Source of the DNA: Chlamydiia bacterium
GTDB taxonomy: Bacteria > Chlamydiota > Chlamydiia > Chlamydiales > Parachlamydiaceae
Reading direction: 5' to 3'
NCBI GenBank assembly: GCA_038257035.1
Contig: JBBSJT010000038.1
Coordinates: 1 to 19,400, forward strand
Length of the DNA stretch: 19,400 nt
Shown here piece after piece: positions 3,001-12,000 of this stretch. How positions within the stretch are numbered: position 1 is the first letter of the stretch; each line of letters opens with the position of its first letter. Position numbers: made by a program.

Positions 3001-6000
3001 AAGAAAAGCCATCATCCGTTTTTATAATTTCTTGAATGGAACATTCTGTTTTTAATTGGACGCCACATTGTTTTGCAGCAGACATTAAGCAATTTATAAT
3101 TGTCTCTGATGAATCTGTGATTGGAAACATGCGTCCATCAGCTTCTGTCTTAAGAGGTACACCCCTTTTTAGAAACCATTCGATTGTCTGTTTTGGTTGA
3201 AATGTTGTAAATGCACTTCTTAATTCCCTTTCCCCCCTTGGATAATTTTTAAGAAGAGCTGTTACATCAAAACAAGAATGGGTGACATTACAACGGCCAC
3301 CGCCTGAAACCCGCACCTTGGAAAGAACAGTACGCGCTTTTTCAATGATAATAACTTCAGCTTTTGGATTATCTTCCTTACAAGCAATTGCGCCGAAAAA
3401 TCCCGCAGCTCCACCGCCAATAATAATAACTTTTTTATTGTCTTCTTTAAGCATGAATAATTACCCTATTTGTAAATAGAACAGCATAGACTATTTGTAT
3501 TTGAATGTAAATTAAGGTTTTAACTTTAAGTCAATATCCCGAAGATTTAAATTTTTTGTCAGTTTACCCTATTTTTTTACCTTGAAGACGATAAATTCTT
3601 AAAAAGAATCTCAATAATCTATTGTATTAATAAAAAAGGAATGCTATCTAAAAGTTATTAATACGGAGCCCGTACGAAAAAATTTGTTATAGCTTGGGTT
3701 TATACTGCCAAATCCATAATGTGATAAACAATAGGCTAATACCGAAAGACAAATCGACATTAAGTGGGGTAATGAGAATGGAAAATTCTATATGAACAAA
3801 AAAAAAAAGGCACTATCTGGAGTTTCCATGATAGAATTTGCTTTATTGCTTCCTATTCTTCTGCTTCTTCTTGTCGGGATCGTTGACATAAGCGTTTTAT
3901 TGCTAGATAAAGCGATTATAACGAATGCAAGCCGTGAAGGGGCAAGATATGGAGTTGTCTTAAGACAGCCAACTTATGCTAGTATGGATAGTATCACTAC
4001 CTACACAACGAATTATTGCAACAACAAACTTATCTCCTTTAGTTCTCCTGCCCCTCAAGTCACTGTTGTCGCCACACCATCTTCCCCTATTCCTCAATTT
4101 GGTGATACGCTATCCGTTTCTGTCAGTTTTGTCTACACAGATCTAATGCTACATTATTTTATAAACCACTCTCAGCAATACACCTTAAATGCAACAACAG
4201 TGATGATGTATGAATAGACGCCAATTCGCAGATAAAAAAGGTCTAAGAAAGATTAAAGGCCAGGTCATGATCATGGTTGGCCTCTGGTTGACGGTTCTTT
4301 TAATGTTTGCAGCATTGACAATAGAAATCGGGCGTTTGTTGATTGTTCGAAATGAACTTCAAAATGCCGCCGATTCAGCAGCACTCCAGGGTGCATCTTA
4401 CTTATATCCCTCCACAAATCAACCCAATTGGTCTCTTGCCCAATCCGAAGCTTTGTCTGCCATTCCGAACAATAAAGTTGAAAAAGTTACTCTAAGCAAT
4501 GGTACTATAACTACCGGTTATTGGAATTTAACCACTTCTACTATGAAATCTGATACAAGTACTCCAATCGCGGGTGATGTGCCTGCAGTGAAGGTCACCA
4601 TTTCAAAATCGGCGGGAAATAATGGGGGACCTGTAAATCTTTATTTTGGGTCACTTCTTGGTATGCCTTCTGTTAATTTGAGTGCAACCGCAGTAGCCGT
4701 TAGTGGATCTCCCGCCGGCGTAAATGCAAATGAACTTTTTCCTATCGCTATGGCAAAATCTTTGTACGATAGTTATTGGGATAGCATCAATAATACACCC
4801 AAAATTGATCCTTTAACAGGAAATCCATACATTTTTCAAATAAATTCAGGCCCGCAAGGAGGGTGGACATCATTTTTACAACAATTGAATGATACCCCAT
4901 CTGTTAGAGCGCTTGTCAGCAACGGTAATCCAACTCCATTGTCAATTGGGCAAAACATCTATTTTTCACCCGGCGTGAAAACCGATATATATTCCTACGT
5001 TCCTACGAATAAAGATGTCTTTGTTGCCATCACCTCCGATACAACACCAGGATCATTTGGTCCGATAGTTGCTTTTGGTGCCCTTCATATCGATTTTGCA
5101 GTAGGAGGGAGTTCTAAATATATTCAAGTGCAATTTACAACTAACCTGAAAATTCCTAGTGGCGAGCCAGGAGGTCCAAGTTATGGACTTTATACACCCG
5201 CACGGTTAGCAAATTAAAATTTAAATAGAAAATTTAAGAGAAAAGACAAGAATTATTGATTACCAACAAAAAAAAGAAACAATATAGCCCCACTAGCGAC
5301 TAGGGAAAGATAGCACCCATAAGAAACTTCTTTTTTAAGAAAGCCTATTGCTGTCGGTTTCTCAGATCTAACAAATTTGACGAATGTGAAAGCAATGAGC
5401 AAAAACAAGGCAATGACAAGTACAGGAAAAAGCAATTTGATTCCAATACAAGCACCTACTCCCGCATTTAACTTAAAATCTCCTGGGAACATTCCATCCT
5501 GATGCCTAAAATAGCGAAAGATCTCATTAATTATCCAAAATATCCCATAACCTGCACTTGCTCCTATAATAGCTTCAGAGGGCGTTAAGAAAATAGGAAA
5601 AAGCGATCCAATCAGACCTGTCCAAACCAAACCTTGAGTCAATTGATCAGGTAAAATGGAATAATCATAATCCGTTAAAAAACAACAAACCAACAAACTA
5701 ATAACGATCCAAACAAAAATTAATGAGGGTAATGAAGAAGCAAATAGAGCCGTTGCACCAAAAATTATTGCCATGCCGACTTCTAATAGAAAATATCTTT
5801 TATATTCAAAATCGCAAGTTTTGCATTTACCTTTCGAATAAAAATAGCCTAAAACGGGAATACCTTCTAATAAACCCCTCTGATTTTTGCAGTTCCAGCA
5901 GAAAGGTTTTTGAAAGGCCCATCTAAAAATATCCCTCGGTTCCCTACCTAATTCGCATCCTTCAAGGAGTATTGGCGGAAGGTAAAAAGTGACCATCCCT

Positions 6001-9000: not shown

Positions 9001-12000
9001 TTTACACAGATTTGAAGAAACTTTGCCATTTCTTCGTTCAAACATCCTCTTCCTACTAAGCTAAAAAGGTCTAATTTTTGGAAAGAGTATTTTCTTATTG
9101 AAACTTTGATTCCATCAATTGCAAGGGGTGGAATAATAGCATGAATCCTACTTCCATCCGGCAATTGAGAATCAAAATAAGGTGTGCCAAGATCAAGATG
9201 CCGGCCCGATTTTGAAGCGACGCGGTGAACTAAACGTAGAATATGTTCATGGTTAAGAAAAGTAATAGATGTTTTTTGGATCCTTCCGTATGTTTCAATA
9301 TAAACCTCATCTGGACCATTAATAAAAATATCGGTTACAGTTTTATCTCTCAATAACGTTTCCACAGGTCCAAAACCAGTCACTTCATCGAAAACCGAAG
9401 TAGCCAGAATTTTGGCATCTTCACTACTTTCGGGAACAAGATTCATTTTTGCTATAGTTTTGTCGATTTCCTCATATAGGTAGGCATTAAGTATTACCTG
9501 ATCTTTTTGCAATGTATTGATTTTATAATAATCAAGGGTTTCAAGAAGCTGCAGATGAATTTCTTTCACGCGCAAAAGAAATGCAATTTTTGTCTCTTTT
9601 ACAAGATCTTCCGGCGATGTTGTCATGTTAATTCCTGTATGATTCCCAAATCTTCTGTTTCCCAAGGTGTTTCCCAAGGTGTTTCCACAAACTCACAACT
9701 TGTTTCTGGACTCATCGTAAGCTCTGTTGGATACCCACACTCAGAATTTTCATTCATGCAATAATCCGCTGGATTTGGCATCTGGCAGGTTTCCGGCCTG
9801 TTCTTGTTGATCAGAAATGGGGTGACCACCACCATTAATTCTGTTTGATGATCTTGGGAATAATCCGATTGAAACAACAGACCAAGAATAGGTATTCTGT
9901 TGAGGCCATATAAGTTGGTATTTTCATTGTGAGACGTATTAAGTATTAAACCCCCTATAACATAGGATTGACCCGGCCAGAGCTTCACAATTGTGTTCAC
10001 ACGTCTGGTCAATAGTCCAGGAATGACAAAGCCCTGCAAGACAACTGAATTATTTCTATCCAAGTCACTGACTTCAGGGGCCACATGTAGGGTTATCAAA
10101 CCATTGAGATCGACATGTGGTGTGAAATCTAAAGAAACTCCATATTTTTTGTATTCTATTGTAACCGTTGGAATCAGTCCACCTTGTGGAACAGGAATGG
10201 GGTACTCTCCTCCGGAAAAAAAATTGGCCCTCTCTCCGGAAACTGTTGTAAGATTTGGTTCTGCAATGAGTTTACTAAATTTATCTTCTTGGAGCATGTC
10301 GATCAATGCCGAAAGATTATAATTGCCAAATATCCCTGATGCTTTCAAAAAATAATTAGGATCATTAAATGGTGGAGAAGGATAAACTGCCCCGATGGCA
10401 AATGATTGATTGATATTTTCAAATAAAACCCTCCAGTTTACTCCTACACGAGAGACAAAATCCCTTTTTACCTCGTATACCAATACTTTCAGAAGTACGA
10501 GCTGCGGCTCGACATCCAATAGATTGATCACTGCCAATTCACCTCCTGGGACTAATTTAACAATGATTTCTATTATTTTAGAAGCCATTTGAGGATCGGG
10601 AACTTTTCCTTTGATAATATAGCCTTTTGGTGATGATGTAACATCAATGCATACAAGGGGGAATAGTGAATTGACCGTATGGGTGATTAAAACTGATTGA
10701 AATCTTTCAAGATTGTCACTCTCAAAAAGCTTTTCCAGCAGTAGATCACAACAATCATTCATTTGCGGCATTCCCGCATTTTCAAGAGAAAGGATACCCG
10801 AATCTTTAGCATAAGAGAAAATTTCAGCCTCTCTAGGATTCATTTCCAATATAACCTGCATTGCCGGAATAAAATTTGGATCATCTTGATCTATTTCATT
10901 TCCGATAATATTTCTTCCAACTGCGATAACTTTGATTCCTCGCATAAGTGTTAAGCTGACGGGGGTGAAACCTATATTTGATTTTGAGGTAAATTTTAGA
11001 TCTACGGCAGATCCTTGGTGAAGGTTTGGTATAACAGGATATTTAGATGTAAGTTCCAATAGAACCGCTCTCTTATTAGGGTCGATGGAAAAACTTGAAA
11101 GATCCTTCGGAGCCATTTTTTTCTTTTGAAGAGGATTAACGGCAACTTCAAGAAGATTAATAGGCGGAAAACTGTTTTTATTGCTCATCATTTGAAGGAC
11201 TTCAAGGATCTTTTCAGATGTTTCAGGATTGTCTACCCTCCCTTTTACAATGAATCCTCTTAGCGTTGAGATAATTTTTAAATCAGCTTTTGGAAAAATG
11301 GATCGCATCATATGTGTGACTAAAATCGAATTGAAATTTTCGTCGGATCTACTAGTCAAAAGCGCTTCGGCAAGTCCTTCATACACATTATTTTTTTTGA
11401 CATCACTTTCTGTATCTTTCAGTCCTATCGTTAAAGACCCATTAATTTCGGCAAATGATAAAATTTCAGATTGCCTTGGAGTCATTTCAAGCAGAATCTC
11501 AACGGGACTATTCGATTTATAAAAACTTGCTGGATCATTGTAAAACTTTCCTGTGGCATCCTTTCCAATACCTATTACGCGTATGTTTTCCAGTAATGTT
11601 AATGATACAGTCTCTATGCTTCCATCGGATTTGGAAGTGAAAATTAAATCGATAATATCACCAAGCATCAAAAATTGAACAGCAGCAGATCTTGCATTCA
11701 AATTAAACGGGACTGCAACTTTCCCATCTTCTATAGGTAGCATTTCAGGAGCTTTGGCAACCTCCTTGACAGTCTTAACTTCCTCCTCAATAGTTTTTTG
11801 AGGTTCGGCAGACTTTTTACTAAATAAAAATGCAGCAGCAATTCCAAGGAAGGCAAATGAAATTATAAAAATTATGCGATCTTTAGCCATGATTTTCTAG
11901 TCTTAAGTTATGTTTAAAAAATTCAATTTACGCCTTTAAATTTTAATTTGTCAATATCATTGCTCATTAATTCTAAAGAGCGCATGTCATTTTAAGTCGG

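Follow-up and report, generated by a model that had tools for sequence, protein, structure and literature searches.

Does a member of the Chlamydiae possess a Tad/Flp pilus, a thin fibre of the adhesive kind, and, if so, is the machine intact, where does it come from and what might it do? The question is raised by contig JBBSJT010000038.1 of a Parachlamydiaceae genome from soil, the first 19,400 nucleotides of which were analysed (the window). An ORF scan combined with Pfam searches placed eight uninterrupted ORFs at positions 3792-11890, every Pfam match of the encoded proteins exceeding the curated cut-off. The cassette is an intact eight-gene kit, stripped-down and partly fused, comprising tadE, tadG, a prepilin peptidase, two flp genes, a TadB-TadC fusion, cpaF/tadA and an RcpC-secretin fusion. 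We consider it probable that these genes encode a self-contained type IVc (Tad/Flp) machine whose streamlined design is peculiar to the chlamydiae and is old, mobile and mostly being lost. The features are listed below by window position and strand.

2231..3454, minus: HI0933-like flavoprotein gene, left flank, outside the system (Pfam HI0933_like, E 5e-79)
3455..3791, no strand: left junction, non-coding spacer upstream of tadE (no ORF of at least 45 aa)
3792..4217, plus: tadE, minor (pseudo)pilin, 141 aa, leader ...SG/VSMIEF (Pfam TadE, E 8e-15)
4210..5217, plus: tadG-like minor pilin or tip protein, 335 aa (Pfam Tad, E 8e-10; Tad_C, E 2e-13)
5253..6059, minus: prepilin peptidase of the long PilD/GspO type, 268 aa (Peptidase_A24, E 1.5e-15; A24_N_bact, E 6e-10)
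6315..6470, plus: flp1, Flp prepilin, 51 aa (Pfam Flp_Fap, E 2e-12)
6524..6679, plus: flp2, second Flp prepilin, 51 aa (Pfam Flp_Fap, E 2e-12)
6695..8242, minus: tadBC, inner-membrane platform, TadB (N half)-TadC (C half), 513-515 aa (Pfam T2SSF, residues 103-227)
8307..9626, minus: cpaF/tadA, secretion ATPase, 439 aa from the ATG at 9626; longer ORF 8307-9677 (Pfam T2SSE, E 2e-53)
9623..11890, minus: rcpC-rcpA fusion, 755 aa (Pfam RcpC twice, plus Secretin)
11891..12183, no strand: right junction, non-coding spacer
11925..11954, minus: weak candidate promoter of the rcpC-secretin/cpaF/tadBC operon, TTGACA-18-TAAATT (best-scoring, 10/12)
12184..13059, minus: PLP-dependent enzyme gene, right flank, outside the system (Pfam PALP, E 1e-49)

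Gene set, pilins and prepilin peptidase

A preliminary description had reported a complete Tad locus here, with two nearly identical 51-aa Flp pilins, fused RcpC-secretin and TadB/C proteins, a TadV peptidase, and TadZ, RcpB and TadD missing. The eight intact ORFs bear out the locus itself, and the data below bear out the pilins and both fusions. "Complete" holds in one sense only, that the same reduced set recurs across the related loci; no ParA-like (TadZ), TPR-pilotin (TadD) or RcpB gene was found in any of them. In the models studied TadZ/CpaE is required for Tad assembly, and TadD for assembly of RcpA, and their absence could mean a machine that is non-functional or that works differently. 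Literature searches and the main texts of PMC8242063 and PMC9816063 yielded no report of Tad pili in chlamydiae. Six supplementary files of PMC6668835, suggested earlier as a possible source of such entries, enter Chlamydia solely for the C. trachomatis T2SS.

The products of flp1 and flp2, the only Flp matches genome-wide, both contain G/VTMIEY and are one residue apart (N3K), the genes differing by 15 synonymous bases and one non-synonymous. An AAGGAG ribosome-binding site precedes flp1, and cleavage of its product after G11 is predicted to give a 40-aa pilin with E5 and Y6. The tadG-like ORF overlaps tadE by 8 nt. Homologues of tadE are 42-63% identical in loci L001-L004, and homologues of the tadG-like gene were found in L001, L002 and L004.

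The name TadV does not suit the peptidase, which is rather a 268-aa PilD/GspO-type enzyme with an A24 N-terminal domain and a CxxC...CxxC segment. That segment is present in four of eight homologues, partial in one and deleted in three, and D130 and the motif PGD194FKLNA are invariant in all eight. The tad-locus enzyme was the single match in a genome-wide search, ie it is the sole A24 peptidase of the genome. Among 400 genomes of the order, A24 exceeded the cut-off in eight, namely seven Tad carriers and the genome with a decayed remnant described below; the other 392 had no A24 peptidase.

The motor and the two fusion proteins

The best NCBIfam model for CpaF was the TadA family (TIGR03819, E 6e-96), with 321.6 bits falling below the cut-off of 373. 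Its start is likely the ATG at 9626. CpaF homologues align with the longer ORF only from its residue 16-17 onwards, and this ATG overlaps the stop of the upstream secretin gene as ATGA, which suggests that translation of the two genes is coupled. The candidate promoter upstream of the secretin gene is weak, because the scan as a whole (40 sites, against 32.9 +/- 6.2 in shuffles) was not above expectation. No TadZ domain was detected in the long variants of CpaF that occur within the chlamydial clade.

T2SSF was detected only in the N half of the window's own TadBC; the C-half domain was detected in homologues from L002, L004, L005, L006 and L007. Alignment of the two halves with hhalign was not significant. 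Of the platform genes that come after cpaF in named Tad loci, the first is matched by the N-half HMM and the second by the C-half HMM, which gives the order of the fusion as TadB then TadC. The predicted structure is all-helical (pLDDT 76.8) and its best PDB match, a weak one, is a PilC model over 414 columns (best Foldseek E 2e-3). Metagenomes contained 54 full-length fused homologues, and all those with an organism name were chlamydial.

Both Pfam domains of the RcpC-secretin protein lie in one ORF, which also scores 78 bits with TIGR03177 (CpaB; cut-off 71). It consists of an N-terminal helix, two repeats of an RcpC-like beta domain followed by a BON-like alpha/beta domain, the secretin and a Cys-rich tail. 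The corresponding AlphaFold domains are 2-23, 58-157, 168-249, 274-371, 382-460 and 464-694, with the tail at 697-755, in a model of moderate confidence (mean pLDDT 70.7, pTM 0.39). Foldseek matched this model to RcpA (8odn, E 1e-12) and RcpC (9gzr, E 2e-4), the same two folds as in the P. aeruginosa pair. The N-terminal hydrophobic segment, modelled as a helix, is kept in 7/7 fusion proteins and may be either a membrane anchor or a cleaved signal peptide. RcpC and Secretin occurred together, and pil_N was not detected, in 12/12 scanned chlamydial-type representatives; conversely, 25/25 scanned canonical long secretins had pil_N and no RcpC. The number of RcpC modules per chain ranges from one to three among homologues. 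The tail has four Cys in 62 aa. Cys was present in the tail of all 21 chlamydial-type proteins (at least two in 20), and tail Cys was not found in three other fusions or in eight canonical CpaC. Since cpaB lies directly upstream of cpaC in named Tad loci, and tadB adjoins tadC, both fusions join neighbouring genes.

Like Aggregatibacter tad, Caulobacter cpa and P. aeruginosa flp-tad-rcp, the cluster combines in a single locus Flp with G/XXXXEY, TadE- and TadG-type minor pilins, a CpaF/TadA ATPase, a T2SSF platform, RcpC/CpaB and an RcpA/CpaC secretin. Unlike them, it has TadB and TadC in one chain, and RcpC and secretin in another, with the RcpC modules duplicated and pil_N gone. A long PilD-type peptidase takes the place of the short TadV/CpaA, the cluster lacks TadZ/CpaE, TadD and RcpB, the secretin tail is Cys-rich, and gene order and strands are shuffled. 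P. aeruginosa RcpC is described as a ring, anchored in the inner membrane by an N-terminal helix, which contacts the periplasmic end of the secretin by binding the N-domain of RcpA, the two being separate proteins in 12 and 13 copies (PMC12307814). In the chlamydial fusion the contact gives way to a peptide bond, which imposes equal copy numbers, and pil_N, the domain responsible for binding, is missing. The same source models TadA:B:C as 6:3:3. TadBC resembles PilC/GspF and two-domain archaeal platforms (Denise et al. 2019, PMC6668835) in carrying two T2SSF domains on a single polypeptide, but differs in its origin, a fusion of the neighbouring genes tadB and tadC with the TadB half first. 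The chlamydial T2SS (C. trachomatis GspD/E/F/G) likewise belongs to the type IV filament family and occurs in this phylum, but is of a different subfamily, with GspE in place of CpaF and GspG in place of Flp; PMC6668835 lists it as "generic" and as widespread among chlamydiae, whereas the Tad system occurs in about 2% of species. Separate GspE and GspD are encoded on contig C62 of this genome. Lineage-specific fusions are also described for Omnitrophota and Bdellovibrio-like Tad machines, which belong to host- or prey-dependent bacteria and have a proposed role in attachment or entry (PMC10066038). There, however, TadZ is fused to TadA, while here it is absent, and the Omnitrophota CpaF falls outside the chlamydial CpaF clade in our tree.

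Insertion site, distribution and ancestry

The cluster is an 8.7-kb block between two housekeeping genes which are adjacent in both congeners, the HI0933-like gene being 88 bp (G053) and 28 bp (G052) from the PALP gene. The flanks are syntenic with the congeners at 66-73% DNA identity, and similarity ends at about 3434 and resumes at about 12204. A Logan contig of soil metagenome run X1 spans 11740-12213, across the right junction. Depth in X1 is even (about 4-7) over most of the flanks and cluster and falls to 0.48 in one bin at the left junction, which is therefore unconfirmed by independent assembly. The GC fraction drops to 0.31-0.32 in the region of flp and tadBC, with no sharp compositional boundary. 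Synteny and depth, save in that bin, bear out the earlier view that the contig is chlamydial and not a contaminant. The indel in this genus represents either a gain here or a loss in both congeners. The G031 cluster is flanked by GH77 and a transglutaminase-TPR gene, two genes that are direct neighbours in G000, G053 and G044. The block occupies different places in the chromosome, and each such site is empty in the other genomes tested.

The rarity noted previously was confirmed with CpaF as the query: carriers numbered 0/2 other genomes of the genus, 2/72 of the family and 7/400 scored genomes of the order (own genome counted), or about 2% of species. The same gene set was found in seven other chlamydial genomes from four GTDB families, with proteins 40-77% identical. 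Seven gene families recur across these seven related loci, in two of which the sampled sequence lacks part of the set; 7/7 have CpaF and the TadBC fusion, and all six whose contig extends far enough have the RcpC-secretin fusion. The streamlined fused design seems to be common only to a few scattered environmental chlamydiae. CpaF identity is 55-96% within a clade whose named members are all chlamydial, and the next matches reach about 44%; identity to Pasteurellaceae and Caulobacterales proteins is 43-46%. In a tree made by a quick method, with the root assumed on the outgroup, the chlamydial clade has an SH-aLRT of 100% and a stem of 1.39, and GTDB families group together. A family member (G071) has a decayed tad remnant, and given this and the site changes the rarity reflects both movement and loss. 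The description of the locus as "probably acquired" is not supported in the sense of import from outside: the deep chlamydia-specific clade, the four families and the decayed copy speak against it, and the block does not look like a recent arrival from another phylum. Within chlamydiae, however, the block has changed place.

Alternative readings and the proposed machine

A competence pilus, in which a short retractile Flp fibre brings DNA to the secretin for transfer to ComEC, strikes us as rather unlikely. Tad-type pili of Liberibacter are reported to be needed for DNA uptake (PMC8513845), and Caulobacter CpaF is bifunctional for extension and retraction (PMC6920026). This genome has ComEC, and the site changes of the cluster imply exchange among chlamydiae. 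ComEC, however, is common in chlamydiae and the Tad system is confined to about 2% of species, so their distributions show no link, and the presence of ComEC does not discriminate adhesion from DNA uptake. None of the eight loci contains competence genes, and no DNA-binding minor pilin was recognised. Less likely still is a silent relic heading for loss, not assembled since TadZ, TadD and RcpB have gone. The absence of three components important in model systems, the rarity among relatives, the remnant in the family and the failure to find the stretch in any RNA run would fit, but a relic would not have remained intact, as these eight ORFs and the same set in seven genomes have, across such divergence. 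The flp duplicates also differ almost solely at synonymous sites, the peptidase shows no change in its catalytic residues among homologues, and the metagenomic TadBC homologues are full-length. Recent import from a non-chlamydial donor (e.g. Proteobacteria), or a mis-binned contig, is very improbable and largely refuted: the discrete block, its GC dip and its absence from both congeners and 70/72 other family genomes would suit it, but the closest CpaF from outside the chlamydiae reaches an identity of only about 44-46%, no group other than the chlamydial clade shares both fusions, the long peptidase and the Cys tail, and the syntenic flanks, largely even depth and lack of a sharp compositional boundary oppose it.

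We therefore return to the streamlined chlamydial Tad machine, whose biochemical steps we infer from the family membership and anatomy given above. Both Flp prepilins and the minor pilin TadE would enter the inner membrane, where the locus's own PilD-type aspartyl peptidase (D130, D194) would cut after the conserved Gly, leaving 40-aa pilins with Glu5 and Tyr6. A CpaF/TadA hexamer would power polymerisation, and probably retraction as in Caulobacter, acting through the single-chain platform, its halves fixed at 1:1 by the fusion; TadE and TadG may prime or cap the fibre. A single polypeptide would serve both as RcpC alignment ring and as RcpA secretin, in place of two proteins in non-covalent contact; its N-terminal helix would stay in the inner membrane, with the two RcpC/BON-like modules making a periplasmic conduit and the secretin domain the outer-membrane pore. 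The lineage-peculiar Cys-rich tail may tie this pore to the disulfide-linked chlamydial outer membrane and could, speculatively, stand in for the missing pilotin TadD. The machine would run without the TadZ/CpaE positioning ATPase.

The 15 synonymous against one non-synonymous differences between flp1 and flp2, and the intact ORFs compared with decayed G071, point to selection on the locus. The eight-gene block would have been inserted between its two housekeeping neighbours, and its design appears old within the order, moving between chlamydial sites or genomes and being lost in most lineages. Its function would be host adhesion or DNA uptake; most likely, the extracellular stage would use it to attach to host (protist) cells or to surfaces.

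Gene content of the locus

Eight unbroken open reading frames lie between 3792 and 11890, and every Pfam assignment made to them exceeds the curated cut-off.

3792-4217, + strand: TadE (Pfam TadE, 55 bits)
4210-5217, + strand: TadG-like protein (Pfam Tad, 39 bits, and Tad_C, 52 bits), overlapping tadE by 8 nt
5253-6059, - strand: prepilin peptidase, 268 aa (Pfam A24)
6315-6470, + strand: Flp pilin 1 (Pfam Flp_Fap)
6524-6679, + strand: Flp pilin 2 (Pfam Flp_Fap)
6695-8242, - strand: T2SSF protein, 515 aa (Pfam)
8307-9677, - strand: T2SSE ATPase, long reading frame (Pfam, E 2e-53)
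9623-11890, - strand: two RcpC stretches and a secretin, 755 aa (Pfam)

NCBIfam gave no match for five of the eight proteins, and the 755-aa protein passes the cut-off of the CpaB equivalog TIGR03177 (78.2 bits against 71). Taken together, the Pfam and NCBIfam matches on eight intact frames confirm the Tad/Flp pilus locus reported in the preliminary description.

The best NCBIfam model for the ATPase is TIGR03819, the TadA family (E 6e-96), although its 321.6 bits fall short of the cut-off of 373.15. The nearest named homologues, at 43-47% identity, are annotated CpaF or TadA. Identity with the type II ATPase GspE is not indicated, as TIGR02533 reaches only 33 bits against a cut-off of 630. 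No GspC, GspL, GspM or GspG family was found in the locus with Pfam, and the genome's own GspE and GspD are on another contig, C62. The homologue alignments start at residue 16-17 of the long frame and an ATG at 9626 overlaps the secretin stop codon as ATGA, so cpaF most likely spans 8307-9626 and is most likely translationally coupled to the RcpC-secretin gene. The RcpC-secretin gene, cpaF and the T2SSF gene form a single operon-like run on the minus strand. The best promoter-like site of the region is 35 nt upstream of this run, in a scan that overall did no better than shuffles. The same bases, 11925-11954 (-), just upstream of the secretin gene, are the top sigma-70-like site of that scan and are similar to the opening 30-40 bases of the flp genes (6316-6349 (+); inverted repeats I5, I6, I19 and I20). 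They could be a relic of an flp 5' end, a shared control element, or a chance likeness in AT-rich DNA.

Both Flp genes match Flp_Fap at 47 bits (cut-off 32.2), and both proteins begin MT(N/K)YQLNKIKG/VTMIEY, ie with an Flp leader and a G/XXXXEY processing site. The predicted cut after Gly11 would release a pilin of 40 residues in which Glu and Tyr stand at positions 5 and 6. Of the 16 base differences between the two genes, 15 are synonymous, and each gene is preceded by an AAGGAG ribosome-binding site, as is characteristic of a pair of genes kept by selection. The leader of TadE, G/VSMIEF, is like that of the pilins, and the TadE, Tad and Tad_C matches supply the TadE/TadF pseudopilin and the TadG of Tad systems.

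The peptidase had been named TadV, and this does not hold. It is still a member of family A24, but in place of the short TadV/CpaA form it has 268 residues, an A24 N-terminal domain (A24_N_bact, E 6e-10) and a CxxC...CxxC segment. D130 and PGD194FKLNA are invariant in the alignment of eight chlamydial peptidase homologues (8/8). The two aspartates of a PilD/GspO-type (A24A) peptidase are therefore present as D130 and PGD194, and we take D130 and D194 to be the catalytic pair of the A24 family. PilD/GspO-type enzymes have an N-terminal cytoplasmic domain with four cysteines, linked to N-methylation; the four-cysteine segment is whole in four of the chlamydial proteins (the window's and three homologues), partial in one and deleted in three. 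No other A24 peptidase was found in this genome. In the order sample A24 exceeds its cut-off in 8 of 400 genomes, namely seven Tad carriers and one with a Tad remnant, and on that distribution the peptidase is assigned to the Tad system rather than to the general type II secretion system of chlamydiae.

The reported absence of TadZ/CpaE, RcpB and TadD nearby extends to seven related chlamydial Tad loci (L001-L007). With Pfam, no ParA, AAA_31 or CbiA family that would mark TadZ/CpaE was found in the window's locus or the seven others, and neither the TPR pilotin TadD nor RcpB in any of the eight neighbourhoods. The genome's four AAA_31-type matches are all on other contigs. Since the same genes are missing from all eight loci, the reduced set of seven gene families is read as a stable feature of the lineage and not as an assembly gap. 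Descent of the ATPase from a TadZ-TadA fusion was considered and rejected, as a ParA-like domain is absent from four long CpaF variants of the chlamydial clade and from seven long outgroup proteins.

Two fused proteins

Both fusions proposed earlier were upheld, that of TadB with TadC by half-specific HMMs and that of RcpC with the secretin by Pfam and Foldseek. Full-length homologues of the T2SSF protein number 54; they are 484-520 aa long and 40-65% identical to it, and all those bearing an organism name are chlamydial. As to T2SSF domains, Pfam detects the N-terminal one alone in the window's protein, and the C-terminal one, or both, in five of the seven related loci. An HMM of the N half matches the first platform gene after cpaF in 13 named Tad loci of other phyla, and an HMM of the C half matches the second platform gene in 25. 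Because the halves match different genes, the two platform proteins of a Tad system are present as one chain, TadB then TadC, made by the joining of neighbouring genes. Internal duplication was rejected, as hhalign found no significant likeness between the halves (E 0.068); the two-domain reading rests on the Pfam matches of the homologues and the half HMMs. AlphaFold gives a model of this tadBC protein that is entirely helical (pLDDT 76.8). The PDB entry that matches it best is a PilC model (414 columns, weak at E 2e-3), and the isolated cytoplasmic domains of EpsF, OutF and PilC fit the tadBC model with TM 0.68-0.75 and poor E-values.

The 755-aa protein matches Secretin at 120 bits and RcpC at 80 bits, so that the RcpA/CpaC secretin and the RcpC/CpaB protein of Tad systems occur as one chain without pil_N. 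Its structural model, of moderate confidence (pLDDT 70.7), has a helix at 2-23, an RcpC-like beta domain at 58-157, a BON-like alpha/beta domain at 168-249, a second copy of the RcpC/BON-like pair at 274-371 and 382-460, the secretin at 464-694, and a disordered tail. Foldseek matched the model to secretins, among them RcpA of P. aeruginosa (8odn, E 1e-12, 26% identity), and to RcpC 9gzr (E 2e-4). The N-terminal hydrophobic segment is kept in 7/7 homologues. The number of RcpC modules varies, with one in L003 and L007 (the latter laid out as TM-SAF-RcpC-BON-secretin), two in the window and three in two 998-aa representatives.

HMMER was run exhaustively against 1.84 billion representatives, and 40 of the 150 best matches were then scanned with Pfam, these being 12 of the chlamydial-type top matches, the matches of at least about 600 aa, and the shorter P0200, P0229, P0267 and P0299. 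RcpC and Secretin without pil_N were found in 12/12 chlamydial-type proteins, and pil_N without RcpC in 25/25 canonical long secretins. Three more RcpC-secretin fusions lie outside the clade (P0200, P0229 and P0299, at 29-30% identity). P0299 was the one traced to its surroundings; the metagenome loci closest to it (78% and 71% identity) keep cpaB apart from cpaC and also have their platform genes unfused, and in none of 80 loci examined did the RcpC and secretin HMMs both match one reading frame. A non-chlamydial donor of the fusion was rejected on this evidence from P0299, as the outside fusions look sporadic or like products of assembly. In named Tad loci cpaB is directly upstream of cpaC, so this fusion too unites neighbours. 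In the genome as a whole only two secretin-domain matches were seen, the Tad fusion and GspD on C62. PF00263 revealed no type III secretin (SctC), a surprising result in a chlamydia; the gene may belong to the 4% of the genome that is missing, or a first look may have overlooked it.

According to PMC12307814, RcpC of P. aeruginosa forms a dodecamer anchored in the inner membrane and binds RcpA, a 13-mer secretin, through the N-domain of the latter; TadA:B:C is modelled there as 6:3:3. Compared with that RcpC-RcpA pair, the chlamydial protein has a peptide bond in place of the contact, and the contact domain is absent. With RcpC and secretin in one chain, ring and pore would have equal copy numbers. 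Each chain could then reach from the inner to the outer membrane; it is also possible that the N-terminal helix is a cleaved signal peptide and not a retained anchor.

Cysteines occur in the tail after the secretin in all 21 chlamydial-type proteins (1-9 each, at least two in 20/21), and an FVETPWE-like motif recurs there. The window's protein has four cysteines in its 62-residue tail against three in the other 693 residues. None was found in the tails of the three other fusions or of eight canonical CpaC proteins. In chlamydiae, cysteine-rich proteins joined by disulfides hold the outer membrane together. That envelope, together with the missing pilotin TadD, leads us to propose that the tail anchors the pore, ie that it would tie the secretin into the disulfide-linked envelope.

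Distribution, movement and loss of the block

The locus is as rare among relatives as had been stated. A CpaF query finds it in 0/2 other genomes of the genus, 2/72 of the family and, with this genome included, 7/400 scored genomes of the order (one was not scored), or 5/303 among those of high quality. The carriers are spread over four GTDB families. A related-locus search returned the same seven chlamydial genomes at 55-76% identity, followed by Caulobacterales at 46%, and the protein collection holds about 65 CpaF clusters at 55-96% identity, then a gap down to 44%. In a quick maximum-likelihood tree of CpaF (45 rows, rooted on 19 outgroup rows) the chlamydial clade has 100% SH-aLRT and a stem of 1.39. 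Within it the three family-f1 genomes group together (support 94, with metagenome rows), as do two of f37 (80) and two of f27 (97). The set of relatives, the identity gap and the tree are not what a recent import from another phylum would be expected to leave, and the system fits an old chlamydial origin. The earlier judgement of "probably acquired" is thus not supported for an import from another phylum, given the deep CpaF clade, even if the block has changed place among chlamydiae.

The block sits between a PALP gene and an HI0933-like gene, which are 88 and 28 bp apart in two congeners; synteny with the congeners continues on the PALP side. Reciprocally, the Tad carrier G031 has its block between GH77 and transglutaminase-TPR genes that are adjacent in the present genome (contig C10), in the congener G053 and in G044. 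The remaining related loci have different neighbours and differ in gene order and strands. These arrangements show that the block has moved, and we think it fairly probable that the genus gained it, from another chlamydia or by relocation, rather than that the congeners lost it. Loss itself is documented by a 99%-complete family member, G071, whose locus L066 (G071:C23, ~8360-10550) is decayed. There residues 1-27 of flp are followed directly by residues 75-141 of tadE, a frameshift interrupts tadG, the A24 peptidase gene is whole, and cpaF, tadBC and the secretin gene are absent.

Pfam detected no integrase or transposase family in the window, and the 8.7-kb block has neither convincing terminal repeats nor a sharp GC boundary. 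The sole inverted pair at its ends is 22 nt long (3567-3588 / 12156-12177), imperfect, 77% complementary and AT-rich. One arm belongs to a hairpin with a T run at 12156-12197 (-), right after the PALP stop and with the Tad block beginning beyond it, which looks like the PALP terminator. In contigs from two soil DNA runs, coverage dropped almost to nothing in one bin at the left junction, which is evidence neither way. A search for sequencing runs containing the stretch turned up none of RNA. A tRNA-Ser gene as the insertion site was rejected, being 1.3 kb off and at neither junction.

Several features of the surroundings were recorded in passing. The tRNA-Ser(GGA) gene, at 13458-13547 (+), overlaps the 5' end of a long 'ogt' frame (13435-14082), and had a depth of 326-513 in the soil runs with numerous loose ends, as a conserved tRNA gene would be expected to show. 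The Ogt Pfam match starts at residue 53, so the real ogt start is later than 13435. Ogt matches both congener loci (L064 and L065; window 13590-14082 compared) only over at most its first 48 residues, ie the tRNA region, so that at the syntenic place both congeners seem to lack the methyltransferase gene, a second insertion or deletion about 1.5 kb from the Tad block. In the congener G052 the HI0933-like gene (G052:C22:19837-21053, L065) is split into two frames (residues 4-292 and 293-406), and the GH77 gene of G044 (G044:C20:23344-24909) has an internal TAA; pseudogenes or sequencing errors are both possible. Two related loci carry an additional gene, L002 one for a eukaryote-like F-box/LRR protein (5900-7084, in the interval from flp to the secretin gene) and L003 one for a cyclic-nucleotide-binding protein adjoining the secretin gene (7858-8262).

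Possible function and significance

The identity and anatomy of the parts are established here, and their activity is inferred. Genes intact over deep divergence, near-synonymous drift of flp and invariant catalytic residues argue for a working machine. In a bacterium that lives obligately inside cells and has an extracellular stage, the likeliest use would be to attach to host cells or surfaces, by analogy with Tad pili elsewhere, which are proposed to do so in prey-dependent bacteria as well (PMC10066038). The main rival is a pilus that serves DNA uptake, for which the genome does have ComEC, but the presence of ComEC does not discriminate between the roles. The following can be offered tentatively, as a possible rather than a probable account. 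Chlamydiae would have arrived at a minimal Tad nanomachine of their own, built from seven gene families, with two partner pairs welded into single chains. Its secretin chain would run from the inner to the outer membrane and be disulfide-locked into the cysteine-cross-linked envelope, the 8.7-kb cassette would travel between host-sharing chlamydiae, and the product would be a retractile fibre grasping host cells (or DNA) in the extracellular stage.

Type III secretion and a reduced type II secretion are the textbook systems of chlamydiae. The literature searched, which did not extend to subscription journals, yielded no account of Tad or Flp pili in chlamydiae. Of two papers on chlamydial pangenomes and evolution, the main text of PMC8242063 contains no pilus terms, and that of PMC9816063 names a type IV pilus only for the pre-chlamydial ancestor, with Tad/Flp pili unmentioned. 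The supplements of PMC6668835, which had been left as a possible source of chlamydial Tad systems, list Chlamydia only for the C. trachomatis T2SS in the portions consulted. Database records already label some of these proteins 'CpaF family' or 'T2SS F family'.

The lineage provides natural single-chain forms of TadB-TadC and RcpC-RcpA, which would fix stoichiometries that are still debated (12 versus 13 copies; 3:3), and single-chain machines without TadZ, TadD and RcpB would make attractive subjects for cryo-EM. How a multi-gene machine is moved and lost can be seen, in a clean and small example, from the reciprocal empty sites together with the decaying copy, in reduced genomes that show no obvious mobility genes close by. 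Should the fibre be made, it would be a new surface organelle for environmental chlamydiae, with a bearing on how they attach to hosts, on host range, or on the exchange of genes within amoebae that they share.
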